Shown here: piece by piece, positions 1 through 51,411 of the stretch
How the letters are laid out: each line of letters starts with the position of its first letter
Position numbering within the stretch: the first letter of the stretch is position 1
Assembly: GCA_937884085.1 (NCBI GenBank)
Contig: CAKZYD010000405.1
Span: 1 to 57,990, forward strand
Length of the DNA: 57,990 bases
Direction: 5' to 3'
Source: an uncultured Sphingomonadales bacterium
GTDB taxonomy: Bacteria; Pseudomonadota; Alphaproteobacteria; Sphingomonadales; CAKZYD01
Made by a program: the position numbers and the translations under genes
The notes under the pieces: model-generated
What the model was told of the DNA's origin: nothing
Databases searched by the model: none
Seen by the model: only the letters and a program-made list of their open reading frames with translations

Positions 1-285
1 GAACTGCAAGTTACGCGGGCCTTGATCAATTTGTGATGCACCAGGAATGGACCGGAGCAGCTCAGCATTGTCGATGGTGATCGCTGCTTCAATGGAGGCC
101 CCATCAATCACTGAGATATTGTACGGCACATCCAAGACATTTTCGACACGGCGCTGCGTGGTGACAAAAATCTCTTCCACCGGATCATCAATGGAGGTCT
201 GTGCCAAGGCATGGGCGGGGGTGAGAGCGGTAGTGCTTAAAGCAAGACAGGCAAGGCCTGTGCGGGTTTGAAAAGAGCGTGTCAT
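1..285 (-). CDS. TonB-dependent receptor, N-terminal fragment (gene continues past the window start)
   Basis: Missing from the ORF track because it is open at the window edge. My reverse-strand translation from the ATG at 283-285 reads MTRSFQTRTGLACLALSTTALTPAHALAQTSIDDPVEEIFVTTQRRVENVLDVPYNISVIDGASIEAAITIDNAELLRSIPGASQ. That is a signal peptide followed by a typical TBDR plug-domain start. The + strand ORF 47..271 is its antisense shadow. Confidence 0.6.
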   Translation of the reverse strand, partial: MTRSFQTRTGLACLALSTTALTPAHALAQTSIDDPVEEIFVTTQRRVENVLDVPYNISVIDGASIEAAITIDNAELLRSIPGASQIDQGPRNLQF

Positions 286-304
286 GGTGTTTCCCTGATA
301 GTGC

Positions 305-1180
305 TTATGTGTCTCCAGGCATTTTGAGTGTGCCCAGTGTGTTTAAAAACGGCGCCGCTTTGCGGTCTGAGTAGAGGGGGTAGTCGACATCGGTGTCGCG
401 GAAGCTTTTGAGCTGCTGGCCAAGGCGGTTCCAGCCGTCTTCGCGGATGCGGCGCACCAGATCCAAGTCCACATCAATGGCCATGATTTCTTTCGCCTCG
501 CCCGCTTGGTGCAAGACTTCTCCACCCGGTCCAGCGACGATAGAGCGGCCATTGCCGACGGGCGCCGCGCAATTCATGTCGAAAAAATAACACTGGTTCG
601 TTGCCGCGCTGGCCCGCGCGATGGCCAGCTCTGCATCCCGATCAATGGTGTTGGTCAGGCTTGGGTGGAGAATGACCTCCGCGCCTGCGCACGCCATGGC
701 ACGGGTCGTCTCCGGGAACCACATGTCATAACAGATGGAGAGGCCGAATGTGCCCACATCCGGCACATCGAACACCGTCACGCTGTTTCCGCAGGCAACA
801 TCTTTCTCATAGGGCAGAAAGGGATAAATTTTCCGGTGCCGAGCGATAATCTCGCCCTCAGGTGTGATAACAGGCGCGCTGTTGAAGACAGTGGCGCCGT
901 CAGCTTCATAGATGCTGCCGGGGACGAACCACAGACCTGCCTCTTTCGCGGCCGCCTGATAGGCCTGCTCTGCCCGCCCGCCGCGCGGCTCAGCATGCTT
1001 TACGCCTGCGCCATAGCTGGCAAGCTCGGGAACAAGCGCCATATCGAGCCAAGGAAAGCGGCGCTTTAGGGATAGCAGCTCGCTGCAGATCTCATCCACA
1101 TTGTCTCTAGCGTGGACTTCAAGCTGTAGTCCAGCGATGGAAAATCGTGCCATGTCCGGCATCCCGTTTGCGCAGTGCAT
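305..1180 (-). CDS. Carbon-nitrogen hydrolase (nitrilase superfamily amidohydrolase)
   Basis: 291-aa ORF with CN-hydrolase hallmarks: an early Glu region (ALVPELASYG), HRKIYPF (catalytic Lys) and LSICYDMWFPE (catalytic Cys). The true start may be the internal Met at 1153 (MARFSIAGLQLEV). Confidence 0.8.
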   Translation of the reverse strand: MHCANGMPDMARFSIAGLQLEVHARDNVDEICSELLSLKRRFPWLDMALVPELASYGAGVKHAEPRGGRAEQAYQAAAKEAGLWFVPGSIYEADGATVFNSAPVITPEGEIIARHRKIYPFLPYEKDVACGNSVTVFDVPDVGTFGLSICYDMWFPETTRAMACAGAEVILHPSLTNTIDRDAELAIARASAATNQCYFFDMNCAAPVGNGRSIVAGPGGEVLHQAGEAKEIMAIDVDLDLVRRIREDGWNRLGQQLKSFRDTDVDYPLYSDRKAAPFLNTLGTLKMPGDT

Positions 1181-1295
1181 TCAAAATTGATGCAGATGCG
1201 AAATGGGTATAGGGCCAGTTTATAGAGAATGATGGTGCCAGTTTCTGCGACCAAATCAGCTGTTGCTTATTTGTCGCGCAGTGTAAGCACTCCAC

Positions 1296-2891
1296 TCAGC
1301 GGGCTATAATGCCCCAATCAATCAAACGGCCTTCGGCATTGAGCCAGTGCATCCGGTCCCCGGTGATGGCGACGCGAAATCGGCCCACTTCGCCATAGGC
1401 CCAGCTCGTCCATTGCCGGCACCAAAAATCCTCTTCAACCCACCATTGTCCGGTATCGCGATCCTCGCTAGCAAAGCCAGCGCTTCCGGTCATGGTGCCG
1501 TCAACGTTGAGATGGATGGTACATGGTTCCTCATAGACGGTTTTACACAGCAACGTTGCCCCGGTGCAGGCTGCAACAAGCGCGCTATGGCCCAAGGGCG
1601 TGAGATGGGGTTGAGCACTGACCGCGCCGCCGCCCATGCTGTCCCGCAGCGCTTGCGCGACGCGGGCGACGCCGTCGCGGATGCTGGCTTCCTCAATACC
1701 ACTCACACCAAGCCGAAACACATTGGCAGGCGCGTTTTCGGGATAATAACGGCTAACTGGTTCAAGCAGCGCGCCATAGGCTTCAGCTTGTTTGACAAAT
1801 CGCGCCACATCCAGGTCGTCAGGCCCCGTAATCCAAGCTGCCGCGCCTAAGCGCGGTGCAATAAAAGATACCGTGCGCGGTAGATAGTGGTTGAGGGCGT
1901 CTTGCAGCGCTGTCATCCGGCGCGCAAAGGCTGTTTCCACGCGCCGTAGTGCTTTTGTATAAAGCCCGAGAGACAGCATCTGCGCAAAGGTACTTTGCAG
2001 CGTCAAAGCCGGGCTGCGCGCTGTAATGCGGCGCGCTGTCCGCGCGGCACGGATAACAGGCGCTGGCGCAATCAAAACACCCAATCGCACGGCGGCGGCA
2101 AGGGGCTGGGCCAACGAGGCCACATAAATGACCTCACCGCCGCCAGGTTCACCGCGCAACGCGAGAGTGTCAGAGAAAGCAAAACCAGCCTCCCACTGAT
2201 AATCATCCTCTACAATAACGAGACCGTGTTTTTCGGCAATATCAAGCAGTCGCGCTCTGCGCCCAGTCGGCATTGCCACCCCCGTCGGCCGCTGGCGGCT
2301 TGGCGAAACAAAGAGAATATCGCATTTGGCCAGCCTCGTCTCATCAATACTGAGCCCGTGTTCATCAACATCAAAGAATTCCAGCTTAGCGCCTTTCGCC
2401 CGCAGCAAGCGCCGCAAATCTGGACTGCATGGACTTTCAAGCCCAACCACGCTGCGCCGACCAACCAACGCTTCACATATCAGATGAAGCCCTTGCTGCG
2501 CGCCGGTGGTAATGAGGATATCTTCTGCGCGCGCAGAAATCCCACGCCGCGGCAAAACCTTCTTGCGTAATTCCTCAATCAACTCAGGATCATCTGAATC
2601 CCCGGCATCGCGGCTCCACGCCGCCACCTCCGACAACGCCATGGCCCCGCGGCTCGCTTCGCGCCATTCTGCGATGGGAAAGAGCGACTGATCAAACGGC
2701 CCATCGATAAAGGGAAAGGGATAACGTTCCCAATCGGGCATTAGCGCCTCTTCTGGGTGTCCGCGCAGCGCCAACCGAGCTTCCCATTTCTTAGCATCGC
2801 TGCGCGGCGCCGGTCCGGAGATACGCGGCGCCGTTGGCTCGGCATCGCCCGCCCGGCCGACATAAAGCCCGCTGCGTAGCCGCGATACCAT
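1296..2891 (-). CDS. PLP-dependent aminotransferase-like (fold type I) domain of a MocR/GabR-family regulator, with an extra ~100-aa C-terminal extension
   Basis: 531-aa ORF. Its N-terminus (VSRLRSGLYVGR..MPDWERYPFPFIDGPFDQSLFP) matches the linker and the start of the AAT-like domain of MocR regulators. It is in the same reading frame as the GntR HTH fragment 2916..3089, from which it is separated only by two TAG codons (see findings). Confidence 0.75.
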   Translation of the reverse strand: MVSRLRSGLYVGRAGDAEPTAPRISGPAPRSDAKKWEARLALRGHPEEALMPDWERYPFPFIDGPFDQSLFPIAEWREASRGAMALSEVAAWSRDAGDSDDPELIEELRKKVLPRRGISARAEDILITTGAQQGLHLICEALVGRRSVVGLESPCSPDLRRLLRAKGAKLEFFDVDEHGLSIDETRLAKCDILFVSPSRQRPTGVAMPTGRRARLLDIAEKHGLVIVEDDYQWEAGFAFSDTLALRGEPGGGEVIYVASLAQPLAAAVRLGVLIAPAPVIRAARTARRITARSPALTLQSTFAQMLSLGLYTKALRRVETAFARRMTALQDALNHYLPRTVSFIAPRLGAAAWITGPDDLDVARFVKQAEAYGALLEPVSRYYPENAPANVFRLGVSGIEEASIRDGVARVAQALRDSMGGGAVSAQPHLTPLGHSALVAACTGATLLCKTVYEEPCTIHLNVDGTMTGSAGFASEDRDTGQWWVEEDFWCRQWTSWAYGEVGRFRVAITGDRMHWLNAEGRLIDWGIIAR

Positions 2892-2915
2892 CTACCCGTC
2901 CGCAACTATGCGAGC

Positions 2916-3089
2916 CTAGGCACCTGCGGCCGTAGTACGTGAGTCCCCAAGAGCGGCGCCCAACTTCCGGCTAGAGGGCAGTTTCATACCCTCAGGCAAA
3001 AGCCCCAGCTCAATCCCATCTACCACCTGCCGCCGGATTTGTTCCTGCATGGGTATGTCAGCGCCGCGATCGATGTCGAATTTAAGCAT
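2916..3089 (-). pseudogene. GntR-type winged-HTH domain fragment of the same MocR-family gene, ended by an in-frame TAG
   Basis: The last 57 codons of track ORF 2916..3413, from the ATG at 3087-3089, read MLKFDIDRGADIPMQEQIRRQVVDGIELGLLPEGMKLPSSRKLGAALGDSRTTAAGA*. This is a classic GntR/MocR HTH (LPSSRxLAxxLGVSRxT). It is in frame with 1296..2891, with TAG codons at 2916-2918 and 2892-2894. The upstream part of the track ORF (3090..3413) does not look protein-like. Confidence 0.7.
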
Positions 3090-3393
3090 TCGCACACAGT
3101 AAAGTGAGGCTTTAAAAAGACAAAAGGTTTGTTGCAAAAGAGGATTTGGCAACCTCTTTGAGCGGATTGGGCGAAGGATCCAGCTTTGATAAGATCGTGC
3201 ACGTGCCTCATCTCGCCTGCATGGCCTTGTCCTTATAGCGCCCGAGGGGCGAGGAGAGGATGTCTTCGATGATCCCTCGTTCGCCAGTTTTGATGTCTGC
3301 GATGGCCGCTGCGGTCTTGGCCAGCTGTCGCAGCGGCGCGGCGGCCTGGATCGCAAGCGGGCCCTTGGATGCGCTGCACCTCTCGGCGCGCCT

Positions 3394-4107
3394 GTGTGCA
3401 TGAGCACTGTCAAAGCGCGGCGAATGGCGCTAGGGTCCAGGCTCTACTTGGTGGCTTCAATTGGTGGGAGCAGTGTTTTGATCCTTGTGCATCATTTGCG
3501 GGTAGGCCGCTCGGTTTTCACGGTGTGGCTGCTAGAAGAGCTCGGCCTCGACTATGAGCTGAAACTCTATGACCGGCTGGACACTGGCCGGGCGCCGCCG
3601 TCGCTGAAAGACGCGCATCCGTTGGGCAAGTCGCCCGTGATTGAGATTGATATCGCCGGCGAGCGCCTCACGCTGGCTGAGTCAGGCGCCATTGCCAGCG
3701 TTCTGGTTGAGCATTTTGACCCGGCGCATGTGTTTGCGCCGCCGCGCAGCGATGAAGCTGCCTTTGCCAAATGGACGAATTGGCTGCACTATCCCGAAGG
3801 CTCCGGTGTGCTGCCGCTTATCTTCAAGCTGCTGACCAGCCGGGCGGGCGAGCCGGTCAACCCTATCGTCGATGCTTTCACACAAGGCGAGCTGGACCTG
3901 CATCTGGGCTATCTGAACGACATCCTGTCCGCGCAAAACTATGTCTGCGGCGATATCTTCCAAGCGCCGGATGTGGGCGTCACCTTCCTGGCGCAAATGG
4001 CTATGGGGCTGGAACTGCTGGCCGACTATCCTGGCATTGCCAGCTATCTGCAGAAAAATATGAGCCGGCCCGCCTTTAGCCGCGCGGTTGAAAAAACGGG
4101 GGGCTAG
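3394..4107 (+). CDS. Glutathione S-transferase family protein
   Basis: HHLRVGRSVFTVWLLEELGLDYELKLYDR is a typical GST N-terminal thioredoxin-like start (HHLxxSRSxRxxWLLEEL), followed by an alpha-helical C-terminal domain. The real start is probably an internal GTG/TTG near 3470; the first ~25 codons of the ORF are likely not translated. Confidence 0.8.
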   Translation: MCMSTVKARRMALGSRLYLVASIGGSSVLILVHHLRVGRSVFTVWLLEELGLDYELKLYDRLDTGRAPPSLKDAHPLGKSPVIEIDIAGERLTLAESGAIASVLVEHFDPAHVFAPPRSDEAAFAKWTNWLHYPEGSGVLPLIFKLLTSRAGEPVNPIVDAFTQGELDLHLGYLNDILSAQNYVCGDIFQAPDVGVTFLAQMAMGLELLADYPGIASYLQKNMSRPAFSRAVEKTGG

Positions 4108-4119
4108 AGCGCTGGGTTG

Positions 4120-5076
4120 TCAGGGCTTGTCAGCATCGACAGTGGCGATGAACGTTCGGACAATCTGCATGTAGGGGCCGGGCACGCGTGAAAAGGAAGC
4201 GTGGGCCACGTCTGGGATGACTTCGAGACGGCTATCCGGCACCAAAGCGGCAAAGCGCGCCAGTGTTTCAGGCCGGGCTTCGTCATATTCCCCGGTGATG
4301 AACAGCGTTGGCGCCTTGATGTCTTTCAAACGCGGCGTCAAATCGAAATCGACCAGGGAGCCGGTCGCATAAAACTCGCTGGGGCCCCACATTTGCTCAT
4401 AGATGGCGTTGTTTCCGGAAACGCCTGAACAGTCAAAATCTCTCTCGGCAGCCTCGCCGCGCGAGACAAACTGTTTGTAGAAGGCCCGCGTTGCTTGCGC
4501 ATAGGCTTTGCTGTCAGTCGTGCCTGCTTTTTCTTCCGCGCTCAGCACGGCTTGAACGTCGCCCGGCAGCTGCCCGCGCAGCAGATTGGCATCTGCAATC
4601 CATCGCGGCGTTGAGAGGAGCGGCGAGGATAAGATGAGAGACTTCACGCCATCGCCGCCGGTTTGTAGATAATAGTATGCGGCCAGTGCGCCGCCCCAAC
4701 TGTGGCCGAGGATGTGTACCTCATCGAGCCCCAGCGCGGCGCGCACAGCGGCCACTTCTTCCACAAATCTATCGCGGTTCCAAAGCGTCTTATCAGTCGG
4801 CCGTCCAGAGCGCCCGCCGCCCAACTGGTCATAGCGTATCACTGGCCGGGTATCGCCCAGCGGCGCCAGGTACTGATAATAGCAGGTGTATGAACCCGGG
4901 CCGCCATGCAGCAAGAGCAGCGGCGTGCCCTCTCCGCCGCCCATGATTTCATACCAAACCGGCCCGCCCGGCACATCGACGAAGCCGCTTTTGCGCGCAA
5001 TGTCCTGCGCAAGCGCGCGCGTTGACACGCAAAGCAGCAGGGCGGCAACAAGGAAAACACATCTCTTCATAGTCAC
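4120..5076 (-). CDS. Secreted alpha/beta hydrolase, proline iminopeptidase (S33) family
   Basis: Signal peptide MTMKRCVFLVAALLLCVSTRALA, an LLLLHGGPGS oxyanion motif and a GHSWGG nucleophile elbow. 318 aa. Confidence 0.8.
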   Translation of the reverse strand: MTMKRCVFLVAALLLCVSTRALAQDIARKSGFVDVPGGPVWYEIMGGGEGTPLLLLHGGPGSYTCYYQYLAPLGDTRPVIRYDQLGGGRSGRPTDKTLWNRDRFVEEVAAVRAALGLDEVHILGHSWGGALAAYYYLQTGGDGVKSLILSSPLLSTPRWIADANLLRGQLPGDVQAVLSAEEKAGTTDSKAYAQATRAFYKQFVSRGEAAERDFDCSGVSGNNAIYEQMWGPSEFYATGSLVDFDLTPRLKDIKAPTLFITGEYDEARPETLARFAALVPDSRLEVIPDVAHASFSRVPGPYMQIVRTFIATVDADKP

Positions 5077-5161
5077 TTTTTGGGGTTTCAGCGGCGCTCG
5101 GTCCAGTCATAATTCGCAAAGCATAAGGCAACGCTTTTAAAGCAAGAGCGCCCGCTATAGG

Positions 5162-5845
5162 GTGCGCCGCATGTGGCGCCTTTATCATTATGCTCTCTGC
5201 CCCTTCTCGCGCAAAATCCGGCTCACGCTGGCGGAGCTGCGGCTGGATTTTGATGTGGTGAATGAAAAGCCCTGGGAGCGGCGCACCGACTTTCTCGTGC
5301 TCAATCCCGCCGCGCAAACGCCGGTGCTGACCTGTGATGATGATGAGCGGGTCCTGGCCGATTCCGCTGCCATCTTTGAATATGTGCAGAGCGAGTATGG
5401 CGCGGATATCAACCTGCTGGGCGAGACGGCGCTGGCAGCGGCGGAGGCAAGGCGGCTGGCGGCCTGGTTCGACTTAAAGTTCTATGCCGACATCACCACG
5501 CACGCCTTTTCTGAAATGGTGTTCAAGCGCTTCATTGAAAAAGCCCCGCCCGATGGCCGGGCCATCCGCGCGGCCAAACACAATCTGGATGTCCACTTGG
5601 GCTATATTGACCACCTGTTCTTTGAGCGCCGCTGGCTGGCGGGCGATAGCTTTTCCATCGCCGATATCGCCGCCGCAGCCCAGCTCTCGGTGATTGACTA
5701 TTTCGGCATGGTTCCCTGGTCTGCGCATGCCCCCGCGCAAGATTGGTACGCGCGGGTAAAAAGCCGGCCCAGCATGCGCCCCCTCTTGGCTGACCGCGTC
5801 GCCGGCCTACCCCCTGCAGCCCATTATGACCAGCTCGACTTTTGA
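5162..5845 (+). CDS. Glutathione S-transferase-like protein
   Basis: The N-terminus LYHYALCPFSRKIRLTLAEL is thioredoxin-fold/GST-like and is followed by a helical C-terminal domain. The 3' end overlaps queG by 20 nt. Confidence 0.75.
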   Translation: MRRMWRLYHYALCPFSRKIRLTLAELRLDFDVVNEKPWERRTDFLVLNPAAQTPVLTCDDDERVLADSAAIFEYVQSEYGADINLLGETALAAAEARRLAAWFDLKFYADITTHAFSEMVFKRFIEKAPPDGRAIRAAKHNLDVHLGYIDHLFFERRWLAGDSFSIADIAAAAQLSVIDYFGMVPWSAHAPAQDWYARVKSRPSMRPLLADRVAGLPPAAHYDQLDF

Positions 5846-6935
5846 GCCCGCGCGGCTGATAGACAAGGCCAGGGCGCTTGGCTTTGATGCCTGCGCCATC
5901 GCCCCCGCGCGCACCAGCGAGGCCGCACAGGAGGCCCTCAAAGCCTTCGTTGACGCTGGCCACCATGGGGAGATGGCCTGGATGGAAGACACGCTGGAGC
6001 GCCGCCTCTCGCCCGAAGCCATGTGGCCCGAGGCCCGCGCGGCCATCATGCTCACCGCCAATTATGGCCCGCTGTCCAACCCGCTAGAAGACCTGGCCTT
6101 TCAAGACCGCGGCCTCATCTCCGTTTATGCCCGCAATAAGGATTATCACGACGTCCTCAAAAAGCGGCTGAAGGCGCTGGCGCGGTGGTTTGCTGAGGAG
6201 GCGGGCGCGCAGGTCAAAGTCTTCGTTGACACCGCCCCGATCATGGAAAAGCCGCTGGCCGCCGCGGCCGGGCTCGGCTGGCAAGGCAAGCACACCAACC
6301 TCGTCTCGCGCCAATCGGGCAGCTGGCTGTTCCTAGGCTCCATCTTAACGGACGCCGCGCTGCCCGCTGATGCACCCGAAGTGGACCATTGCGGGCGCTG
6401 CCAATCTTGCCTAGACGTCTGCCCCACCGATGCCTTCCCCGCCCCCTATCAGCTTGATGCGCGGCGCTGCATCTCCTATCTCACCATTGAGCATAAGGGC
6501 CACATCCCCGAAGAATTCCGAAAGCCCATAGGCAACCGCATCTATGGCTGCGATGATTGCCTGGCCGTCTGCCCCTGGAACAAATTCGCCCAGGTCGCCC
6601 ACGACGCAGCCTTCCACCCCCGCCCAGAGCTAACCCTCCCAGCCCTCGCCGACCTCCTTAGCCTAGACGAGGAAAGCTTCCGCCAAGTCTTCACCGCCAG
6701 CCCCATAAGACGCATTGGCCGAGACCGGTTTATAAGGAACGTGCTGATTGCGGCTGGCAATAGCGGGGCGGCAGCGCTGGTGGAGTCCGTTAAAGCGCAT
6801 CTGGAAGACCCGAACCCGATAGTGCGCGCTATGGCTGTCTGGGCGCTGCGGCAGTTGTTAGGGGATCGGGCTGATGTGGTGTTGGCCGGGATACGGGCGC
6901 GGGAGACGGATTTAGGTGTGTTAGCGGAGATTTAA
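5826..6935 (+). CDS. queG: tRNA epoxyqueuosine(34) reductase
   Basis: Two 4Fe-4S ferredoxin motifs (CGRCQSCLDVCPTDAF, GCDDCLAVCPWNKF), a CISYLTIEHKG motif and a C-terminal HEAT-like repeat (DPNPIVRAMAVWALRQL). 369 aa. Confidence 0.9.
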   Translation: MTSSTFEPARLIDKARALGFDACAIAPARTSEAAQEALKAFVDAGHHGEMAWMEDTLERRLSPEAMWPEARAAIMLTANYGPLSNPLEDLAFQDRGLISVYARNKDYHDVLKKRLKALARWFAEEAGAQVKVFVDTAPIMEKPLAAAAGLGWQGKHTNLVSRQSGSWLFLGSILTDAALPADAPEVDHCGRCQSCLDVCPTDAFPAPYQLDARRCISYLTIEHKGHIPEEFRKPIGNRIYGCDDCLAVCPWNKFAQVAHDAAFHPRPELTLPALADLLSLDEESFRQVFTASPIRRIGRDRFIRNVLIAAGNSGAAALVESVKAHLEDPNPIVRAMAVWALRQLLGDRADVVLAGIRARETDLGVLAEI

Positions 6936-7080
6936 TAAACTATATTAACGTATCAAATGTCTACAACTAAGGTTCATAAATTTAAAGATATATCCATTTC
7001 CCATAGTCTATCGCTATAATATGTAGTGCGGCTCTTTAAAACCCATTTATAAGACCGATTTCCAGATAGGATAAATAATA

Positions 7081-7719
7081 CTAATCTTTTCGAAGACTTC
7101 TTGTTAGCATATAAACACTGGTCGAAGGGTTCCCATCTTCATTATCTTCATATTTTCTATTGGCCCGCTGCCGCTCAGCTCGTTTTTCTGCTTCAGAAAT
7201 TTTATCAACAAATAGAGAAAAGTCTGCAATCTTTCCAGCTTTGGGATTATACTCCCCGATTAAGGTCTTTGTTATAGCTTGAGCTTCATGTCGAGAACAT
7301 GGCGCGTCGTAATCGTCAAAATGAAGGTTTATCCAAAGTTCGAAACATGGATCGGAATAAGCATAGGATATTCCAGCTCGATCACAGATTTGTTTTGCTT
7401 CACCATAACAGGTGAAGTCGTCTCGATCGAAAACCGCCCATACTTCATCTTTTTCTTCGAAGGAGTTAAGTCTTTTCTTACGTCTTGTTTTACTTAGCCC
7501 CTTTTGATCAGCGAATTTTACAGCGGCGTTGGCAACAGTTTTTGGCGCACCCAAGGGCCCTTTATATATTATCTTAGTTCGACGGGAATCTAGCGTTGAG
7601 CCAATGGTATTAAAGTAGCTTTTCTCGGTTTTCTCGCCTTCTGAAAACAGATAAAAATATCGTTTAGCTGAGCGCGTTGCAGGTGATCTCTTTAGAGCGC
7701 GCTTGCGTTTGAATCTCAT
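7081..7719 (-). CDS. RloB-like / Toprim-like protein (AbiLii/RloB-type partner of the upstream ATPase)
   Basis: I prefer the Met at 7717-7719 (MRFKRKRALKR...), which leaves a 10-nt gap after the ATPase stop. The track ORF extends to 7785 and would overlap that gene. Motifs: YFYLFSEGEKTEKSYF (conserved acidic Toprim Glu), VWAVFDRDDF (DxD) and YSDPCFELWINLHF (RloB-family signature as I recall it). The gene lies in AT-rich DNA. Confidence 0.75.
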   Translation of the reverse strand: MRFKRKRALKRSPATRSAKRYFYLFSEGEKTEKSYFNTIGSTLDSRRTKIIYKGPLGAPKTVANAAVKFADQKGLSKTRRKKRLNSFEEKDEVWAVFDRDDFTCYGEAKQICDRAGISYAYSDPCFELWINLHFDDYDAPCSRHEAQAITKTLIGEYNPKAGKIADFSLFVDKISEAEKRAERQRANRKYEDNEDGNPSTSVYMLTRSLRKD

Positions 7720-7729
7720 GGCGGCGGTA

Positions 7730-8992
7730 TCAAAATGGAGTAGCGCCGAAACGACCCTGTAGATAGCCCTTTTCGATATTATCACTAGGTCTAGTTCGAA
7801 TGTCTGTTAGTGGGTAGATTTCCGTTGCACCTATCTTCGATTTAGCAACGAACCACACTTGATCCCTTCTAAAGCAATCACTGTCCAATAAATTAGTATC
7901 GTGGGTGGTTGCTAACATTTGCGCGCCGTGAGGATTATGTTCCTTGGAACAAAACATGTTGAGTAGCTTTTCCGATGCCTGAGTATGCAAGCTTAGATCG
8001 AGTTCATCTACAATGACGATGCCGCCAACCTTTAATACGCCGAGGACTTTGGGTAAAGCCGACAACAGGCGCAGCGTGCCAGCACTTTCCATCTGGATTG
8101 GAAAGTGTTTGCTTCCGCCGTCTTCGCTTTGATGCTCTAGCTCAATAACCTTGTCATCATCGTCGGGTGACTCGAATTTTAAGTCAGCCTCTACCTCATG
8201 AAGGATAGACTGTACCGCGAGATTGAGCTTTTTGGTCAGTTCCCTTTCTTCATCAGACAATTCGCGGTCTTTCGTGCGATACCCTATAATTCCAGTGTTT
8301 ATCTCTCCGAGAAAATCGATCACGCCATGATCTATTTTCCATTGGTGCTCTTTTTTAAGTCGCTGCTCGGCTGCAGGCCCCGACATGCTCAATGAGGTCT
8401 CTAGTTGGATTGAATCGAAGAAATTGAAAACCCTGGTCAACTGTTCATGGCTGTTTTGCGCAGCTGCAGAGAGAAAAAGGCTATTAGCCCGCGTTAAATC
8501 TGCAATGGTGGAATTTCGGCCTTTCAAGTTTCTGCCGAAGCTAAAGTTCTGACCGTCGCGTTCAAATAGTTTTCTAGGAGTGCCTAGCGGATAAGAGTAC
8601 AACCATTCTTCGGAAACGGAGTCTTCTAGGATTGCAAAGCCATAATTGAACCTTACTGCATCCAGAATAAAGTTGATCTCAAAAACTGTTGGTTCAGAAG
8701 TCGAAGTGTTGTCGAGTAGGAATGGTTTTCTCGTTGGGATCGAGCCACCGGGTTGTCCCTTCGTTTGCGAGAACAAGACTGTAGAAATCATGGCATTGAA
8801 TGCCCGGATCAAGTTAGTTTTTCCTGAAGCGTTGGCTCCGTAAAGCAATATTGCTGGAAGAAGCCTTCCTTCGCTAATCGCGTCCGTTAAAATAATGCCA
8901 TTTTCACAGTCTTTGAGGCTGGAAGCCACAAATGAAAGCACTTCCCTTTTTTTGATCGAGCGATAATTCTCAACCTCAAACGAGATAATCAT
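7730..8992 (-). CDS. AAA15/AAA21-type (ABC-fold) ATPase, AbiLi/RloA/AriA-like
   Basis: 420 aa. Walker A is GANASGKT (aa 52-59, nt 8816-8839). There is an ABC-signature-like ESAGTLRLL, a Walker B IVIVDELDLSLH (aa 325-336) and an H-loop ATTHD. A ~100-aa charged, helical insertion sits between the two nucleotide-binding halves. The C-terminal tail is YLQGRFGATPF. A strong RBS (GAGGAG) lies 9 nt upstream of the ATG. Confidence 0.85.
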   Translation of the reverse strand: MIISFEVENYRSIKKREVLSFVASSLKDCENGIILTDAISEGRLLPAILLYGANASGKTNLIRAFNAMISTVLFSQTKGQPGGSIPTRKPFLLDNTSTSEPTVFEINFILDAVRFNYGFAILEDSVSEEWLYSYPLGTPRKLFERDGQNFSFGRNLKGRNSTIADLTRANSLFLSAAAQNSHEQLTRVFNFFDSIQLETSLSMSGPAAEQRLKKEHQWKIDHGVIDFLGEINTGIIGYRTKDRELSDEERELTKKLNLAVQSILHEVEADLKFESPDDDDKVIELEHQSEDGGSKHFPIQMESAGTLRLLSALPKVLGVLKVGGIVIVDELDLSLHTQASEKLLNMFCSKEHNPHGAQMLATTHDTNLLDSDCFRRDQVWFVAKSKIGATEIYPLTDIRTRPSDNIEKGYLQGRFGATPF

Positions 8993-9441
8993 GCCTTGAG
9001 TCTCCTCGGCGTTTCATGTGCCGATAGGCTGTCAAATATGTAAAAATTCGACAAATTACCAGATTAAAACTCGATTCAGGTGCCGTTTTCTGATATGACA
9101 TGTTGCTATGTAAGGCTATGTTTTTACCTTGTCCTGCTAGTTGCCTTCGAAGTTTCGCGTGCTCCCTCTGGCCCGACTTCATTTAGTTTATTCGCGGGGA
9201 GCGGGCTTTAGCCGACGAGGTTCAGGTTGTCTCCGTAATAGAAAACTTGGCTTTTTCAGGCTAGGCGACGCGAAGGATAAGGGTGCTTCCTCAACAAATC
9301 CGTTGAAAAGACTCATTACAGTAGCTGTGTAAAGCCCCTTCCTTTGGCATCACGTTCACCCCGTCCACACTACTAACCGCAATCATGATGCGGTCGAATG
9401 GGTCCCAGTCTTCAAACAGTGTGCCCCACGCTTGATTCCAC

Positions 9442-9972
9442 CTACTCCAACACAGCTTCATGCGAAAATTTACGCCCGTCCGTCACGATGATGCGTTCAA
9501 AGCCTAGGACGATGCCCATGGCGTAGACGTCGAAGGTGTCGCTGAGGCCCATGTCGGTGATGTCGGGCTGGAAGCGGGCGATGGATGTCATGCGCGCTAA
9601 CAGGGCCTTGGCGACATAGGGCGTGAAGTATTCAATGGGCTCGATGTTCATGATGACCAACGTGGTCTTTTGCGCGCCCACGGCTTGCATGATGATGGGA
9701 ATGGCCCGCTCGGGACCGGCTGTCATGATATTGAGTTGGTCGACAAACAGCTGCCGCTGCGTTGGCCCGGCCCCTTCCATGGCTTTGAACCCCGTCTTCG
9801 GTTTGTGGCCGCTTGTGACTGGCGGGTAATAGATCCCAACGCCCGTCGCCTCATCCGCTTTGGCCGATTTCTTAGCCAAGACAGGCGCAGCGGGGCTCAT
9901 CGCCAGAGCAATGAGGATGCTGAGCGCTAAAAGGGGGCGCGTCAGACGGCGGGTTGTTTGGGGCAATAGCAT
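9442..9972 (-). CDS. Secreted hypothetical protein
   Basis: I prefer the Met at 9970-9972, which is preceded by GGAGGAAA. MLLPQTTRRLTRPLLALSILIALAMSPAAPVLA looks like a signal peptide. I recognise no family. Confidence 0.6.
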   Translation of the reverse strand: MLLPQTTRRLTRPLLALSILIALAMSPAAPVLAKKSAKADEATGVGIYYPPVTSGHKPKTGFKAMEGAGPTQRQLFVDQLNIMTAGPERAIPIIMQAVGAQKTTLVIMNIEPIEYFTPYVAKALLARMTSIARFQPDITDMGLSDTFDVYAMGIVLGFERIIVTDGRKFSHEAVLE

Positions 9973-10210
9973 ATTCGTTTCCTCCGAGGTTGTACCGTGA
10001 AGCCTATAGCGACGTTGCCGTGATTTTCGACAAAAAAATGCCCGCGCCTGGCGCAAAGTCACAGCGCTTCCAGCATATAGCGTGCCGCCTCAGCCACAGG
10101 CCCGCCGCGCGCCTTGCTGTCGCCCGATATTCTCACCCAAAGGGGGTTGCACCGGGGTGCTGTCACTCTAAAACATCTAAAAATGCTTCTCATAAGCAGG
10201 TATTGGATGG

Positions 10211-10783
10211 ATGGCCCAGAGCAGTGGGGATGTAAAAACGCAGGCGGCAGCTGTCTCCGAAGACCGCTCTCTGAAGCGCTTATATAGCAACAACGTCGCG
10301 CGTATTGCTGGGGCGCTGCGCAAGAGCTTTGGCGATGGTCCGCCCGATCCTGACGATATTTCTCATCTGGCTTTTCAAAAATTCTTAGAGCGCAAAGAAC
10401 ATGCCACAGTGCGCAACCCAGAAGCGTTTTTGTGGCGCACGGCCCGCAATCTGGTGCTCAATGAGAAGAAGCGCGATAGCGTGCGGGCGCGCTATGATTA
10501 TGAGGTCGAGCATCTTTTTTTTGCTCATAGGGGTGACATTTTTGTCCCTGAAAGACTCGTAAGCGCTCAAGAGCAGATAGAGTTGATGCTCCAGGTGATT
10601 GCGGACATGCCCGACAAACGCCAAAGGTCTTTTATATTGCACCGGGTTGAGGGCCTGTCGGTCTCAGATGTGGCGCGGAAGATGGCGCTCAGCCGGACGG
10701 CGGTGACCAAACATCTGGCGCGGGCCTTTGCCGATATCGATGCTGCTCTGCAGGTTTTGTCCAGAGACGAGGCAGATGCGTAG
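10211..10783 (+). CDS. ECF (sigma-70 family) RNA polymerase sigma factor, FecI-like
   Basis: Region 2 (FLWRTARNLVLNEKKR) and region 4 HTH (LSVSDVARKMALSRTAVTKHLARA). The 3' end overlaps the downstream FecR gene (ATGCGTAG). Confidence 0.85.
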   Translation: MAQSSGDVKTQAAAVSEDRSLKRLYSNNVARIAGALRKSFGDGPPDPDDISHLAFQKFLERKEHATVRNPEAFLWRTARNLVLNEKKRDSVRARYDYEVEHLFFAHRGDIFVPERLVSAQEQIELMLQVIADMPDKRQRSFILHRVEGLSVSDVARKMALSRTAVTKHLARAFADIDAALQVLSRDEADA

Positions 10784-11834
10784 CGAAGAGGCGAACATGG
10801 GCAATCAGGCCCCCGATCCGCAGCTGCTCCATGAAGCGCATGAATGGCGTCTGCGCAACGATATGGGCGATTTGAGCGCGGATGAGCGCCGCGATTTTTC
10901 CGCTTGGCTTGCCGCTAGCGAAGCGCATGAAGCCGCCTATGATCGCGCCATTACCCTGAATGCAGCGCTTGATACTTTAGATCCGCAAACACTGCGGCCT
11001 GTACCGATGCAGGCGGTTTATACTTTCGCGCCGCAAGGCGATGAGACATTCGGTTTCAGATGGTCTCTAAAGTGGATTTTTGGGGCTTTGCTGGCTGGGG
11101 CTTTAGGCGTGTCAGCATTGGTGTTTATGCCGCGTTTTGAGGACGGTGCCGCATTGGGCACAACACAGCAGACCTATCAAACGGCGGCCATTGAAACCCG
11201 CTCCATCACCCTCAGCGATGGCTCAGACGTTCTGCTCGGGGCAGGTAGCGAATTGCGGGTAGACTATGGACCAAAGCGACGTGATATCGTCCTACTGGCT
11301 GGCGCGGCTTTGTTTGATGTCATGTCCGACCCGGAAAGGCCATTTACGGTTTCCGCAGGCCCGCTCAACGCGCGTGCCGTCGGCACGGTGTTTGATGTGC
11401 GCTATAATGCCGGGGTGAGCCGCGTGGCCGTTGCTGAAGGCCGGGTGCGTGTCAGCTACCCTCTCGTCATAAACGATCAGCCGACACAGTCTGATCTTGC
11501 CCGCACGCTCACGGCAGGCCAGCAAATTGCAGCGCTCAACCAGGGTCTTGGCGAGGTCAAACCGATTGCTATGGACAAGGTCGGCGCCTGGCGCGATGGG
11601 CGCATAGACTATGTGGCCGCCCCGCCGGCCGAGCTGATCGCCGATGCGAACCGCTATGGCAACGTCGACATTTCACTCGATGACCCGTCGGATCAGCTGC
11701 GTGGAAAGACGATCTCCGGCTCCTTCGATATGACGAATGTGGACCGGCTGCTGGAAGTGCTGGAGAGCCTGTTGCCGGTTAAGGTTGCCCATACCGCCGA
11801 CAGCAACATCGTCTTAAAAGCGCAAGAGAAATAG
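10776..11834 (+). CDS. FecR-family anti-sigma factor / transmembrane sensor
   Basis: N-terminal anti-sigma domain (AHEWRLRNDMGDLSADERRDFSAWLAASEAHEAAYD), a single TM segment (IFGALLAGALGVSALVF) and a periplasmic FecR domain (GSELRVDY...ALFDV...RPFTVSAGPLNARAVGTVFDV). I chose the start at 10776; 10797 is the alternative. Confidence 0.85.
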   Translation: MRSEEANMGNQAPDPQLLHEAHEWRLRNDMGDLSADERRDFSAWLAASEAHEAAYDRAITLNAALDTLDPQTLRPVPMQAVYTFAPQGDETFGFRWSLKWIFGALLAGALGVSALVFMPRFEDGAALGTTQQTYQTAAIETRSITLSDGSDVLLGAGSELRVDYGPKRRDIVLLAGAALFDVMSDPERPFTVSAGPLNARAVGTVFDVRYNAGVSRVAVAEGRVRVSYPLVINDQPTQSDLARTLTAGQQIAALNQGLGEVKPIAMDKVGAWRDGRIDYVAAPPAELIADANRYGNVDISLDDPSDQLRGKTISGSFDMTNVDRLLEVLESLLPVKVAHTADSNIVLKAQEK

Positions 11835-11862
11835 AGCCTTTGTGCGCCTGATCGTTACGCTC

Positions 11863-11890
11863 GGATAATTTTTTTTAAAAAAGATCGCGC
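11863..11890 (+). promoter_or_regulatory. Candidate ECF-dependent promoter or operator motif (GGATAA-T8-A6-G) upstream of the receptor gene
   Basis: cGGATAATTTTTTTTAAAAAAGATCGCG lies just after the FecR stop. A similar element (cGGAAAAATTTTGAAAAAGTGGG) occupies the equivalent position in the paralogous module at 22649-22670 on the - strand. Confidence 0.25.
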
Positions 11891-11977
11891 CTCAGGGTGT
11901 CAAATCTCCAACCCCAATTGTCGTAAAGGCATATTTGCGACTGAGTGGCAGTCACAGTCATTCCTAAAGGGGTTCTC

Positions 11978-14539
11978 ATGAGACAGTCTTTGCGATTCCA
12001 CGCTAGCCGATGGGTTCTGGCATCCGCCTTCATGATATCGGTAGCGCCGGCGTTTGCTGTGCCGTCTTTGGCGCAGTCTGTCCAGGAGGAGCGGCAAGTG
12101 GTCGCTTTGCCAGCTGCGCCCTTGGAGGATGCGATCTCCGCCGTCGCCCGTGTTTTCAAAATTGATATCTTGGTCTCTAGTGACTTGGTTGCGGGACAAA
12201 CGGCGCCTGAAATTTCAGGTCAGCTCAGCGCTGAAGAGGCGATCACCGAAGTTCTTCGTGGCTCCGGCCTGAGCGTCCGTCGTTCGCCAAGCGGTGGATA
12301 CATCATCGAGAAAAAGACGGCGCAGCGACGCACTAAACCTACTCGCGCAGTCAGGCCTGTTGTCGCTGATACGATTATTGTCACCGGCACAAAGCAAAAC
12401 CTCTCCATCCAGGATACGCAGGCATCTGTCGCCATCGTTACGGATGAGCTCATTGATGCCCAGGCCATCTTTGAATTGTCGGATATCTTTCTGCGCACGG
12501 CCAACGTGACGCAAACAAATGGCCCCTTTAGTTTTTCAATCCGCGGCGTCAGCAGCGGCGGCGTTGGCGGCGCAGGCGTTGGGCGGACAGCAAACATCTA
12601 TCTCGACAATGCGCCGATCTCGCTGAATGGCCTGTCCAGCGCCTTCAATCTTTGGGACATTTCACAAGTTGAGATTCTGCGCGGCCCGCAATCAACGACC
12701 CAAGGGCGCAACGCGCTTGCTGGCGCGGTGGTTATGCAATCAGCTGACCCGGAATATGATTTTGGTGTCAAATTACGCGCACTCATTGGCAATAACAAAA
12801 CGCGTCAATATTCAGGTGCCGTCACTGGCCCAATTATCGAAGACCAAATTGCCTTTCGTATTGCGGCCGACTACCGAGAACAAGATTTCCAAACGCTTAA
12901 TGGCGTAACAGGCGCACCGGAAGGGGCAAGCGACGCAACAACACTGCGTGCGAAGCTGCTGTTTGAGCCGAGTGTCATCCCGAATTTGCGACTGGAAGTC
13001 AGCTACCAATATGTCGATTTCTTCACCTCCGGAGATGGATCTGGTGTGATTCGGCCAGATCCAGAGTCCGAGGATGCTATTGGATTTGATCCCTTTGACC
13101 GCGTCAATTTCGATTTTCGCGGCGGTGTTGTCGAAAATGAAAATCACCGTTTCTTAGCCGACCTTTTTTATGAGTTCAGCCAAAATTGGTCAGCACAAAT
13201 CATCGCGACCTATGATGACACGGAGCGCTTTATTGATAACGTGACTGGTCCAGATTTACGACTGGAAGAAACGTTTACCGTCGATGGGCGCGGTATTTTT
13301 AGTTATGACCGCTTCAGTGGTTGGTTTGGTGGTTACTACTTTAGAGATGATTTGGCCTCCAGCACAGATCAAGCCTTTAATGTTGCCGGTTTTGGTGGAA
13401 CGATTACGCCAGCTGGCACGGATGTCCTTTTTATCCAAAGCCGATCCGCAGAAACGGAAAACTATGCCTTTTACGGCGATGTGACCTTCGCATTAACTGA
13501 CCGAATCTCGCTTAATTTTGGTGCGCGTTATGATAATGAAAAGGTGACCGATACGGGCTTCGCCTCCCAACTTTTTGTTGATTTGCCGCCCGGTACACCG
13601 TGTACGATTTCTGCTTTCTTTGGCACTGGGCCATGTGATGTAGTGCTTGGCCTTACCGGCGTAGCAGATGGAGATCCATTAGCTGGTACAGCGCCTTATG
13701 ATGCATTTTTGCCGCGCGGTGGCATCATCTTTGACATCGATGAAGACAAGTCCATTTCCTTCGTGGTCCAACGCGGATACCGCGCTGGCGGCTTTTTCAT
13801 AAGGTCTGAGAGTACATCGACCGGGCTCAGCCGAGAGGTCGTAAGCTTCGACGAGGAATACCTTACCAATTACGAGATCGCATGGCGCTCTGTTTGGCTT
13901 GATGATCGTCTCACTTTTAACGCCAATGCCTTTTATAGTACCTGGAGCGATCAGCAGGTCCGTATCCAAGAACCTGGCTCCCTTGAACCGGAAATCCGAA
14001 ATGCTGGCTCATCAGAACTTTATGGTCTGGAAATAGAAACAGCATTCAACGTGACATCCTCGCTGGACGTTTATGGAAGCCTCGGCCTTGTCCATACTGA
14101 GTTCACAGATTTCCCTTTTGCGGTTGATGACAACGGTGATCCAGTCAATCCCGCCAATCTCACATTTGCAAATTTGGCTGGAAATGAGTTTGGTAGCGCG
14201 CCGAACGTAACCGCATCGGTCGGTGTTGTTTATGACAATGACACTGGCGTCTATGGATCAGCGAATATCAGCTACCGGGGTGACCAGTTTTCCGACGTGA
14301 CAAATCTGGATGTGAATAGAACGGGCTCTTATGCCATCGTGAATGCCCGGGTCGGCTATAAAACCGACATCTGGCGTGTTTCAGTCTTCGTCGACATTCT
14401 CTTCATCGAGGAATTCCTGAGAACGAACGTGTTGCTAGAAGTCGACCCAGACACCGGCTTGGTTGATGACGCTAACATTGGTCGGAATAACATCAGCCAG
14501 CCACGTCACTTCGGTGTTGAGGTCGAAGCGACGTTTTAA
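11978..14539 (+). CDS. TonB-dependent receptor/transducer with an N-terminal STN signalling domain (FecA-like)
   Basis: The start at 11978 is preceded by AAAGGGG. Signal peptide MRQSLRFHASRWVLASAFMISVAPAFA, an STN domain (LPAAPLEDAISAVARVFKIDILVSS...LSAEEAITEVLRGSGLSV), a plug (DTIIVTGTKQNLSIQDTQASVAIV) and a long beta-barrel ending in a terminal Phe (GVEVEATF). Confidence 0.9.
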   Translation: MRQSLRFHASRWVLASAFMISVAPAFAVPSLAQSVQEERQVVALPAAPLEDAISAVARVFKIDILVSSDLVAGQTAPEISGQLSAEEAITEVLRGSGLSVRRSPSGGYIIEKKTAQRRTKPTRAVRPVVADTIIVTGTKQNLSIQDTQASVAIVTDELIDAQAIFELSDIFLRTANVTQTNGPFSFSIRGVSSGGVGGAGVGRTANIYLDNAPISLNGLSSAFNLWDISQVEILRGPQSTTQGRNALAGAVVMQSADPEYDFGVKLRALIGNNKTRQYSGAVTGPIIEDQIAFRIAADYREQDFQTLNGVTGAPEGASDATTLRAKLLFEPSVIPNLRLEVSYQYVDFFTSGDGSGVIRPDPESEDAIGFDPFDRVNFDFRGGVVENENHRFLADLFYEFSQNWSAQIIATYDDTERFIDNVTGPDLRLEETFTVDGRGIFSYDRFSGWFGGYYFRDDLASSTDQAFNVAGFGGTITPAGTDVLFIQSRSAETENYAFYGDVTFALTDRISLNFGARYDNEKVTDTGFASQLFVDLPPGTPCTISAFFGTGPCDVVLGLTGVADGDPLAGTAPYDAFLPRGGIIFDIDEDKSISFVVQRGYRAGGFFIRSESTSTGLSREVVSFDEEYLTNYEIAWRSVWLDDRLTFNANAFYSTWSDQQVRIQEPGSLEPEIRNAGSSELYGLEIETAFNVTSSLDVYGSLGLVHTEFTDFPFAVDDNGDPVNPANLTFANLAGNEFGSAPNVTASVGVVYDNDTGVYGSANISYRGDQFSDVTNLDVNRTGSYAIVNARVGYKTDIWRVSVFVDILFIEEFLRTNVLLEVDPDTGLVDDANIGRNNISQPRHFGVEVEATF

Positions 14540-22648: not shown

Positions 22649-22670
22649 CCCACTTTTTCAAAATTTTTCC
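22649..22670 (-). promoter_or_regulatory. Candidate ECF-dependent promoter or operator motif (GGAAAAATTTTGAAAAAG), counterpart of 11863-11890
   Basis: The reverse strand reads GGAAAAATTTTGAAAAAGTGGG immediately after the FecR stop, resembling the motif in the paralogous module. Confidence 0.25.
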
Positions 22671-22689
22671 GCTGATAAGTTGGCCCTGG

Positions 22690-23763
22690 TTAGAGGCCTG
22701 TTTTGGGCCGGATTACAATGCGGTCGTCATCACCGTTTTCTATCTCGATGGGAAAACTTAACGCCAGCAGTTCCAGCATACGGCCCACATCATTGGCCGC
22801 AAAAGAGGCAGTGATGGTCATTGCGGCCAGCGCTTGCGTATCGCCAGCAAGCACAATGGAAGCGTCTGAGTATCGATTAACGTCAAAAACAATCTCAGCC
22901 AGCGGCGCGCCATCGTAGATCAGACTGCCCATTTGCCAGGCGCCCACCTTATCGAGCGCGATGGGTCGTACCGCTCGCAATCCATCCACTTCGGTGGCAG
23001 CAACTTGCTGACCGGCGGAAAGGACGACTTTCGTGTCCATAGAAAAGGCTTGGCCGTCCACGGCCAAAGGATAGCCAACACGCACGCGCCCTTCCGACAC
23101 CGCGACGCGGGCCACCCCGCTGCTTTTGCGTACGTCAAATATAGTCCCCAGCGCTGTCGCAGTTAGATCCCCAGTGCGCACAATGAAGGGCCGTGCCGGA
23201 TCTGACACGACGTCAAAGAGCGCCGCCCCCGCTGATAACGACACAGTGCGGCTGTCCCCATCATAGACAATCTCTATCTGTGTCTCCGGGCCAAGCGTCG
23301 CCTCGCTACCATCTGCCAAGATGACAGTGCGTGTCTCGCCATGACTGCTAGCAAAGGTGGCACGGCTTAGTATTACGTCTTCTGGCGCGGCGGTCTGAAA
23401 CAAGGGCAAAAGGGCGACCAGGCACACAGCAAATGCGGCCGTGATTGCGCCGCCAGCGGCAAGGCGTCCACGGGTGGTTTTAAACCGCGCTGCAAGCTCG
23501 CTTTTAAAGCGCACCCACTGCTCGCCTAGACTTGGCTCCATTAAATCTGCAGCGATGTCATCGCCGCGCAGCCCGTCATAGGCCGCCCATATGGTCACGG
23601 CTCGGTCATAAGCCTCTTCATGACGGACATCGGCGGCGAGCCACGCCTCAAAGGCCGCCTTATCCGCAGCGCTAGACTGGGGGCCGCGCATACGTTCGCG
23701 CCACATATGCGCTGCCGCAATGAGCCGGCCTGTTTCGGCTTCAGCTGTACGGGTCGCGGCCAT
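22690..23763 (-). CDS. FecR-family anti-sigma factor / transmembrane sensor
   Basis: AAHMWRERMRGPQSSAADKAAFEAWLAADVRHEEAYD (anti-sigma domain), a TM segment (GGAITAAFAVCLVALLPLF) and a FecR domain (ALFDV..RPFIVRTGDLTATALGTIFDV). The start overlaps the sigma gene stop by 1 nt (TAATG). Confidence 0.85.
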   Translation of the reverse strand: MAATRTAEAETGRLIAAAHMWRERMRGPQSSAADKAAFEAWLAADVRHEEAYDRAVTIWAAYDGLRGDDIAADLMEPSLGEQWVRFKSELAARFKTTRGRLAAGGAITAAFAVCLVALLPLFQTAAPEDVILSRATFASSHGETRTVILADGSEATLGPETQIEIVYDGDSRTVSLSAGAALFDVVSDPARPFIVRTGDLTATALGTIFDVRKSSGVARVAVSEGRVRVGYPLAVDGQAFSMDTKVVLSAGQQVAATEVDGLRAVRPIALDKVGAWQMGSLIYDGAPLAEIVFDVNRYSDASIVLAGDTQALAAMTITASFAANDVGRMLELLALSFPIEIENGDDDRIVIRPKTGL

Positions 23764-51209: not shown

Positions 51210-51284
<75 letters not shown>

Positions 51285-51411
51285 CTTTTTCATAAATAAA
51301 ATGATGCCCGATCATCAAAAAGACCGGTTCGAACTTTGTTCGAAGCAGGGCACCATTCATCTTCTTGCAGGTCAAGGAGCTTGAATTTATAGTAATGCGT
51401 CGGGGGAAAGT

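Follow-up and report, generated by a model that had tools for sequence, protein, structure and literature searches.

A predicted AbiL-type ATPase-RloB gene pair in an AT-rich islet beside queG of an uncultured marine Sphingomonadales bacterium

Directly beside queG on contig CAKZYD010000405.1 of an uncultured Sphingomonadales bacterium (assembly GCA_937884085.1), an AT-rich islet of roughly 2.2 kb (2.26 kb, positions 6936 to ~9190) carries two genes which almost certainly constitute a module of the AbiL family, composed of an AbiLi-type ATPase and an AbiLii-type RloB protein. All positions refer to the whole stretch of 57,990 nucleotides that was analyzed, termed the window in the following. 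AbiL is a two-gene abortive-infection system from a lactococcal plasmid, isolated via its phage-resistance phenotype (PMC13064643). It is grouped with PARIS, OLD, Gabija and MADS among the systems that combine an ABC ATPase with a Toprim protein (PMC13064643, PMC11464382, PMC12409363). Judged by its sequence, the pair in the islet is an intact but ordinary AbiL member and not a divergent one. It is a horizontally acquired two-gene module, and it quite probably acts as an ATPase-nuclease pair in abortive infection in a PARIS-like manner.

Only two long open reading frames (ORFs) are found within the islet, both on the minus strand. The first (7730..8992) encodes an AbiLi-type ABC ATPase of the AAA_21/AAA_15 group with 420 aa, the presumed sensor and antitoxin, as assigned by PADLOC and Pfam profiles, motifs and a structural model. 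The second (7081..7719), assigned by Pfam, PADLOC and a model as well, encodes an RloB-family protein of AbiLii type with 212 aa, which is predicted to be a nuclease with a Toprim fold and is presumed to act as the toxic effector. The 10 nt between the ATPase stop codon and the RloB start (7720..7729, minus strand), as read from the DNA, form the operon junction.

The assignment to AbiL is carried by both proteins and by their arrangement, as the ATPase is matched by the AbiLi profile, its partner by the AbiLii and RloB profiles, and the genes are adjacent and co-directional with the ATPase gene first. For the ATPase, the PADLOC model AbiLi (PDLC02335) gives an E-value of 3.4e-86 (287 bits), while the next-best model reaches 5.6e-34 (116 bits); in Pfam, AAA_21 (3e-34) and AAA_15 (2.5e-9) are matched. 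The partner matches Pfam RloB with 5.3e-31 over profile positions 1-195 of 195 and PADLOC AbiLii (PDLC02337) with 8.5e-24, the latter profile being matched by all 73 aligned RloB homologues as well. An earlier note on this DNA had described two genes of these lengths, 10 nt apart, as an ATPase with a Toprim/RloB-like partner, and had named AbiL as sharing this architecture. Sequence and profile matches bear out the former, the literature the latter (PMC11464382, PMC13064643), and every ATPase and partner motif it quoted is present with the numbering used there.

In the ATPase, these motifs are GANASGKT at residue 52 (including K58), ESAGT at 302, IVIVDELD at 325 and TTHD at 362. Across 72 ATPase homologues, Walker A from G52 to K58, Q179, the signature E302-S303-x-G305-T306, D329-E330 of Walker B and H364 are invariant. 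The AlphaFold model (predicted local distance difference test, pLDDT, 84) displays a Rad50/SMC-type head carrying a helical insertion of about 100 residues, and it matches the structures or heads of Rad50, SMC and the Septu protein PtuA at about 1e-10. By sequence, the nearest solved structure is AriA (E = 1.2e-3). A search with the ATPase yielded more than 4,400 homologues, of which the best 120 are all 414-456 aa long at 48-100% identity; an exact-protein look-up found no record of an identical ATPase. Because these 120 listed homologues keep a length of about 420 aa even where identity falls to 48-50%, the helical insertion is a feature of the family. Hence, the suggestion that the pair might be a divergent, uncharacterized member, for which the earlier note had pointed to this insertion and to the basic N-terminus of the partner, finds no support; the latter is likewise conserved across the 73 RloB homologues, with the consensus MxxRxxxxLKRRxxxREPKRRF.

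The partner starts at the ATG of MRFKRKR. A longer form initiated at GTG (234 aa, extending to 7785) was rejected, as the ATG is where the homologues begin. Its motifs comprise SEGEKTE at residue 26 (E27, E29), VFDRDD at 96 (D98, D100) and DPCFELW at 123. Invariant in the 73 RloB homologues are E27, G28, T31, E32, E88, D91, D100, E127 and H133, and D98 is nearly so (≥90%). Of the acidic residues which had been singled out beforehand, E27, D98 and D100 belong to this set, but not E29, which is variable; a previously proposed E27A/E29A mutant would therefore better be replaced by E27A or E27A/E32A. With a profile built from the RloB alignment, 10,646 cluster representatives were retrieved at E ≤ 1e-3 from 1.84 billion proteins. 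Compared with the contig of a sister metagenome-assembled genome (MAG), L081, the RloB gene holds 6 of the 23 single-nucleotide polymorphisms (SNPs) found over a compared span of 7665 nt, within 585 nt (7081-7665) of the window. Four of these SNPs are clustered at 7369-7375, and the resulting amino-acid changes are F25L, G116R, I117F and N193K, all four falling at positions that are variable in the family.

The AlphaFold model of RloB (pLDDT 87) contains a beta-alpha-beta-alpha-beta-alpha-beta core with four strands and helices between them. One strand covers residues 20-26 and is followed by E27, and another covers 92-98 and ends in D98-R-D100. A glutamate and a DxD motif after strands 1 and 3, respectively, is the arrangement given for Toprim and RloB proteins (PMC12065111). 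The predicted structure of the partner thus shows the Toprim arrangement.

Several results weaken the case for a Toprim nuclease that works like the PARIS effector, and similarity to solved Toprim domains did not reach significance. Foldseek searches of the RloB model against the PDB gave nothing below E = 1e-3 (best 0.02; the gyrase Toprim domain at about 0.08-0.11), and in BFVD the model matched only another RloB-like phage protein (4.5e-9), besides the Toprim domain of DnaG at 0.044. No match was obtained when the RloB alignment was compared with the single P2 Old sequence by hhalign, and a sequence search for solved structures of RloB or AbiLi relatives found none. The DUF4435 (PF14491) and AriB models matched neither the partner (E ≤ 0.1) nor its 72 homologues (E ≤ 10), and the analogy to PARIS is architectural only, because a link between RloB and AriB/DUF4435 is missing at the sequence level. 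When Pfam and PADLOC scans of the 73 RloB homologues were extended to E ≤ 10, no other Toprim family was matched; a harvest of homologues of the Old Toprim region for a profile returned 5 fragments only and zero plasmid matches.

Among known systems, AbiL of Lactococcus lactis plasmid pND861, the founding member of the AbiL class in PADLOC and DefenseFinder, shares with the islet the order of an ABC (AAA_15/21) ATPase gene followed by an RloB-family gene, a partner with conserved glutamate and DxD motif, and a family distribution on plasmids and islands. In contrast to the lactococcal system, the islet resides in a marine alphaproteobacterial MAG and not in a Firmicute, and its pair is chromosomal and devoid of mobility genes. 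The likeness between the two holds at the level of profiles, because Lactococcus appears neither in the ten most frequent genera nor in the listed rows of the plasmid BLAST matches. PARIS likewise consists of an ABC-type ATPase (AAA_15/21) and a separate effector of the Toprim superfamily, and a logic of sequestration followed by release would likely be common to both. Its effector AriB, however, is a DUF4435 protein of about 300 aa, whereas the partner in the islet is an RloB protein (PF13707) of 212 aa. The identification of the pair as PARIS was rejected, as the partner lacks any DUF4435/AriB match. The ATPase match to the PADLOC model 'AriA' (5.6e-34) looks generic, because the residues and the profile span involved are nearly the same as for Pfam AAA_21.

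The OLD proteins, i.e. P2 Old of class 1 and GajA of class 2, likewise unite an ATPase of this superfamily with a Toprim nuclease, and P2 Old can be aligned with the C-terminal lobe of the islet ATPase (hhalign E = 1.3e-4). They are single fused polypeptides, in contrast to the two genes of the islet, and RloB has no detectable alignment to the Toprim region of Old. A fused OLD or Gabija system was rejected on the grounds of two ORFs with a stop codon and 10 nt between them, the missing GajB/UvrD-like helicase neighbour and the missing Toprim_OLD match in Pfam. Septu (PtuA/PtuB) was rejected too, given that the partner is an RloB protein with no HNH match and that the similarity to PtuA is at the fold level only. 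The NetFlax pair AAA(D29):TOPRIM_OLD(D44) from Clostridium algidicarnis, which by its description likewise combines an RloB-homologous protein with an AAA ATPase, is the only relative with a published toxicity-neutralization test, and no phage-defence phenotype is reported for it (PMC10440598, Fig. 6B).

RloA/RloB of Campylobacter jejuni resembles the pair in that Pfam RloB matches the islet protein over its full length and that the partner is an ATPase. Based on this relative, the pair could be an accessory of restriction-modification (R-M) which acts with restriction enzymes or monitors them and does not work on its own. Indeed, the Pfam family RloB owes its name to the Campylobacter gene that occurs in type I R-M loci (PMC10440598), PARIS as a system of related architecture senses anti-restriction proteins (PMC11464382), and a DNA methyltransferase gene lies 2 kb upstream of one plasmid homologue. 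While the Campylobacter genes are located inside type I R-M loci, neither hsdR, hsdM or hsdS nor any other R-M gene flanks the pair in the islet, and hsd genes occur in none of five other chromosomal or MAG contexts, so that an R-M accessory is extremely unlikely. An RloA/RloB system embedded in an R-M locus was rejected for the same lack of hsd genes among the neighbours of the islet.

Horizontal acquisition of the islet is indicated by its foreign composition and by the fact that mobile elements and defence or toxin islands repeatedly carry close homologues. Between 6936 and 9300, the content of guanine plus cytosine (GC) is 0.435 compared with 0.564 in the rest of the window, in agreement with the AT-richness which had been estimated by eye. 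All 400-nt windows from about 6900 to 9300 range from 0.385 to 0.48, as opposed to 0.55-0.65 in the flanks. Third-position GC content (GC3) amounts to 0.47 for the ATPase gene and 0.35 for the RloB ORF (calculated on its 234-aa GTG form), whereas all other ORFs of the window with at least 150 aa lie at 0.52-0.75; because both values fall outside this range, the pair is the strongest compositional outlier of the window. The left border is abrupt and coincides with the stop codon of queG (6935), the next 40-nt windows having a GC content of 0.23-0.28. The right border, at about 9140-9190, is less sharp, with GC back at host level from about 9140. In line with the earlier expectation that the pair is not a core component of this locus, the order GST-queG is kept in 59 of 80 other alphaproteobacterial queG loci, while an AbiL pair stands beside queG in none of the 80.

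Closely related pairs are found on integrative elements. In a Tateyamaria MAG (contig L083; ATPase 73-74% identical) and on contig L084 (ATPase 70% identical), the pair forms the cargo end of a 7.2-kb element (L083 2245-9501 and L084 2839-10071, respectively). Both elements encode an integrase and an AAA_25 protein, L083 additionally a relaxase, and both are flanked by direct repeats of 50 nt, made up of the 3' half of tRNA-Phe, on contigs of Rhodobacterales type. Small upstream ORFs in these elements resemble AlpA-type excisionases, as judged from their sequence. In Ruegeria (L085), the pair is part of a tRNA-Arg/integrase island together with a SMODS gene, and in L086 it stands among ParE, AbiEii, Phd and a transposase. 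The closest homologue of the ATPase (77% identity) is encoded on contig L082 (9274-12434), where IS1595 interrupts the RloB gene and leaves the ATPase gene intact, a course of decay which a toxin-effector model allows and which is consistent with a toxin-antitoxin pair. This L082 locus sits between two inverted paralogous DAO/FAO_M/GCV_T genes.

Plasmids with ATPase homologues number 182 and those with RloB homologues 75, more than half of them being mobilizable or conjugative. The 5.2-kb ColE1-type plasmid pUUH239.1 (L089, NC_016979.1) carries the pair as its sole cargo apart from mobilization functions, with a GC content of 0.36 against 0.57 in the backbone. Many mobilizable ColE1-type plasmids of 4-6 kb from Klebsiella and E. 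coli carry an ATPase-RloB pair, and in one such record the ATPase bears the name abiLI. The GC content of the pair is below that of its surroundings in each of the six other loci that were measured. Nonsynonymous divergence (dN) between the pair and its homologues is 0.2-0.4 at saturated synonymous divergence (dS), which indicates purifying selection on the pair; as dS is saturated against the available homologues, this statement on dN/dS is qualitative only.

At the islet itself, two sister MAG contigs give information on the left junction. L081 is 99.7% identical over window positions 1-7665, where it ends, and L088 is 99.6% identical over 1-6961, where it ends 26 nt into the islet. As these two independent contigs reproduce the join of queG and islet, an assembly chimera can be dismissed for the left junction; the right junction is present in the window contig only. 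That both sister contigs break within the islet could reflect strain heterogeneity or a local drop in coverage.

The usual traces of an acquisition event are absent, most of which the earlier note had likewise not seen at this place. No tRNA gene lies within 42 kb of the pair, and neither an integrase nor a convincing flanking direct repeat or target-site duplication was found at the islet, where direct matches are short and at chance level. An empty site was not found in close relatives either. Because integrase, tRNA, target-site duplication and empty site are all lacking, the acquisition event itself is undocumented. The pre-insertion site is not visible because QueG relatives in 185,579 species genomes are at most 65% identical, which is too distant. 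Metagenome scans with the neighbouring 206-aa protein and with a 24-nt exact pattern of the queG end found nothing, and exact-protein look-ups returned only the two sister MAG contigs, both of which already contain the islet edge.

A 15-nt inverted repeat lies at the borders, with its left arm at 6934..6948 (AATAAACTATATTAA) and its right arm at 9178..9192 (TTCATTTAGTTTATT), pairing at 13 of 15 positions. Within the 58-kb window, the 9-mer core AATAAACTA is present in these two arms and nowhere else. Shuffled sequences seldom reach the score of this repeat, in a post hoc test centred on the arms. The repeat is not kept in other AbiL loci, in which the best flanking inverted repeat pairs at 11-12 of 15 positions, and it may be due to chance. 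A different reading would take the islet as a non-autonomous defence mini-element, bounded by the inverted repeat and inserted precisely at the queG stop codon without integrase or tRNA, and would add a large RloB clade, with a basic, disordered and conserved N-terminal tail, that may work unlike PARIS, for instance with this tail mediating docking or nucleic-acid binding and with a new target. This combination is quite improbable. If the mini-element or the non-PARIS mode of RloB were true, the locus would be a compact entry to the AbiL mechanism.

Elsewhere in the window, a tRNA-Phe gene (51210-51284) is followed by a second patch of low GC content (0.43-0.48) with an orphan ORF of 197 aa (51412-52005), tRNA gene and ORF together spanning 51210-52005. 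The orphan ORF has no Pfam match, and no att-like repeat was found there. In relatives, the AbiL-carrying element integrates at this tRNA; in the window, the tRNA-Phe att sequence known from L083 and L084 is present at the tRNA gene itself and nowhere else.

The arrangement of the operon is shared with other members. The ATPase gene precedes RloB in L083, L084, L085, L086, L089 and L090, with a spacing of 10-15 nt in L083, L084, L085 and L090; in L089 the two genes overlap by 8 nt, and in L086 the spacing is 154 nt as annotated and 10 nt according to the tblastn match. A third conserved gene was not detected: compared with other AbiL loci, neither DNA nor tblastx similarity extends beyond the ATPase and RloB genes, and nothing in those loci corresponds to the small ORFs at 8976-9182 and 9141-9332. 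Upstream of the ATPase gene, the right part of the islet (8993..9192, minus strand) comprises the leader and presumed promoter region. The GAGGAG ribosome-binding site is located at 9007-9002, 9 nt ahead of the ATPase ATG, and a TTGACA hexamer at 9035-9030. At the other end, an AT-rich non-coding spacer (6936..7080) with a GC content of 0.23-0.28 in 40-nt windows separates the convergent queG and RloB genes at the left border. It has no Rfam match, no fold better than shuffled sequences and no similarity to other AbiL loci. For the non-coding parts altogether, no Rfam match and no fold clearly beyond shuffles were obtained, the best z-score being -1.74 (8993-9140).

A less favourable result for a functional module is that a scan for the sigma-70 consensus upstream of the ATPase start found no promoter, this being a weak test for an alphaproteobacterium, and that counts of promoters and terminators at the operon ends are not above those of shuffled sequences. 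Both would be expected if the pair were an inactive relic of an old integration, intact by chance and unexpressed, as would the lack of mobility genes at the islet, the raised SNP density in RloB between sister MAGs (6 of 23 SNPs with four amino-acid changes) and the insertion-disrupted homologue in L082. A relic is nevertheless very unlikely, given that both ORFs are of full length, every residue invariant in the family is present and a good GAGGAG site stands 9 nt before the ATPase start. Moreover, the four RloB changes fall at variable positions of the family, with four of the six SNPs in a single cluster, and the sigma-70 scan has the limited power mentioned above.

For an active AbiL-type pair, a role against phages or other mobile genetic elements is probable, with phage defence as the predicted function. 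The mechanism outlined here is based on analogy and on the published toxicity neutralization of a related pair, with sensing, sequestration and substrate carried over from relatives. The ATPase would oligomerize and keep the RloB nuclease inactive, serving both as antitoxin and as sensor of infection. A phage-derived cue would then alter the state of the ATPase, by which the RloB nuclease would be freed or activated. RloB itself would be a metal-dependent nuclease effector, its most likely substrate being tRNA or some other RNA required for translation and DNA a less likely one, and the infected cell would be stopped, resulting in abortive infection. The Toprim protein of Gabija cuts DNA, so that either kind of substrate is conceivable.

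In PARIS, a hexamer of AriA sequesters the Toprim nuclease AriB, and a phage protein triggers its release and the cleavage of tRNA (PMC11464382, PMC12409363), AriB being a tRNase (PMC12409363). P2 OLD has been described as an abortive tRNase as well (bioRxiv 10.64898/2026.07.10.737580, a 2026 preprint). By analogy to these systems, the prospects of a sequestration-and-release logic in the AbiL pair appear evenly balanced, while tRNA as the target of RloB is a tentative and somewhat less probable proposition. A precedent is provided by the RloB-homologous toxin of node D44 from Clostridium algidicarnis: in E. coli, the cognate AAA ATPase neutralizes this toxin (PMC10440598, Fig. 6B).

The same experiment is also what would be expected if the pair was mainly a selfish toxin-antitoxin addiction module, with RloB as toxin and the ATPase as antitoxin, which would persist because its loss is lethal to the cell and would give no meaningful protection against phages in this host. 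In that study, a phage screen of another AAA-neutralized pair gave no hits (PMC10440598). Small ColE1-type plasmids with the pair as sole cargo, one homologue among ParE/Phd and AbiEii modules and the isolated position of the islet outside any defence island fit addiction, too. The founding AbiL, however, was isolated by its phage-resistance phenotype (PMC13064643), and the ABC ATPase sensors of PARIS, OLD and Septu answer phage cues (PMC11464382). Addiction would bring little gain to a chromosomal islet without mobility genes, and it is compatible with abortive infection, the two roles not being mutually exclusive. An addiction module in the first place is hence unlikely, and a pair acting in abortive infection is preferred.

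The surroundings of the islet are not a defence island. On the queG side, the neighbours encode an alpha/beta hydrolase, GST and QueG, and on the other side a secreted protein, an extracytoplasmic function (ECF) sigma factor with FecR, and a TonB-dependent receptor. The adjacent gene for a 206-aa protein (9442-10062) displays a segment resembling a signal peptide and a host-like composition (GC3 0.71); no Pfam or NCBIfam match was found for it, and neither the 80 alphaproteobacterial loci nor the metagenome scan yielded a relative. Two clusters exhibit a layout like FecI/FecR/TonB-receptor loci, one at 10211-14539 that is confirmed by Pfam and one at 20063-24344 recognized by ORF sizes and order only. 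Their receptor genes have a GC content of 0.51-0.53, below that of their neighbours.

The islet adds one intact AbiL-type pair from an uncultured marine alphaproteobacterium and represents a clean case of a minimal chromosomal defence islet, the close homologues of which ride on integrative elements at tRNA-Phe. In terms of relevance, the family outweighs this instance, as modules of ABC ATPase and RloB are very common, the RloB cluster representatives numbering more than 10,000. For such modules, a search of literature and structures found no solved structure, trigger or substrate. The islet copy is not singled out in this respect, and any tractable AbiL member could tell whether RloB effectors cut tRNA.

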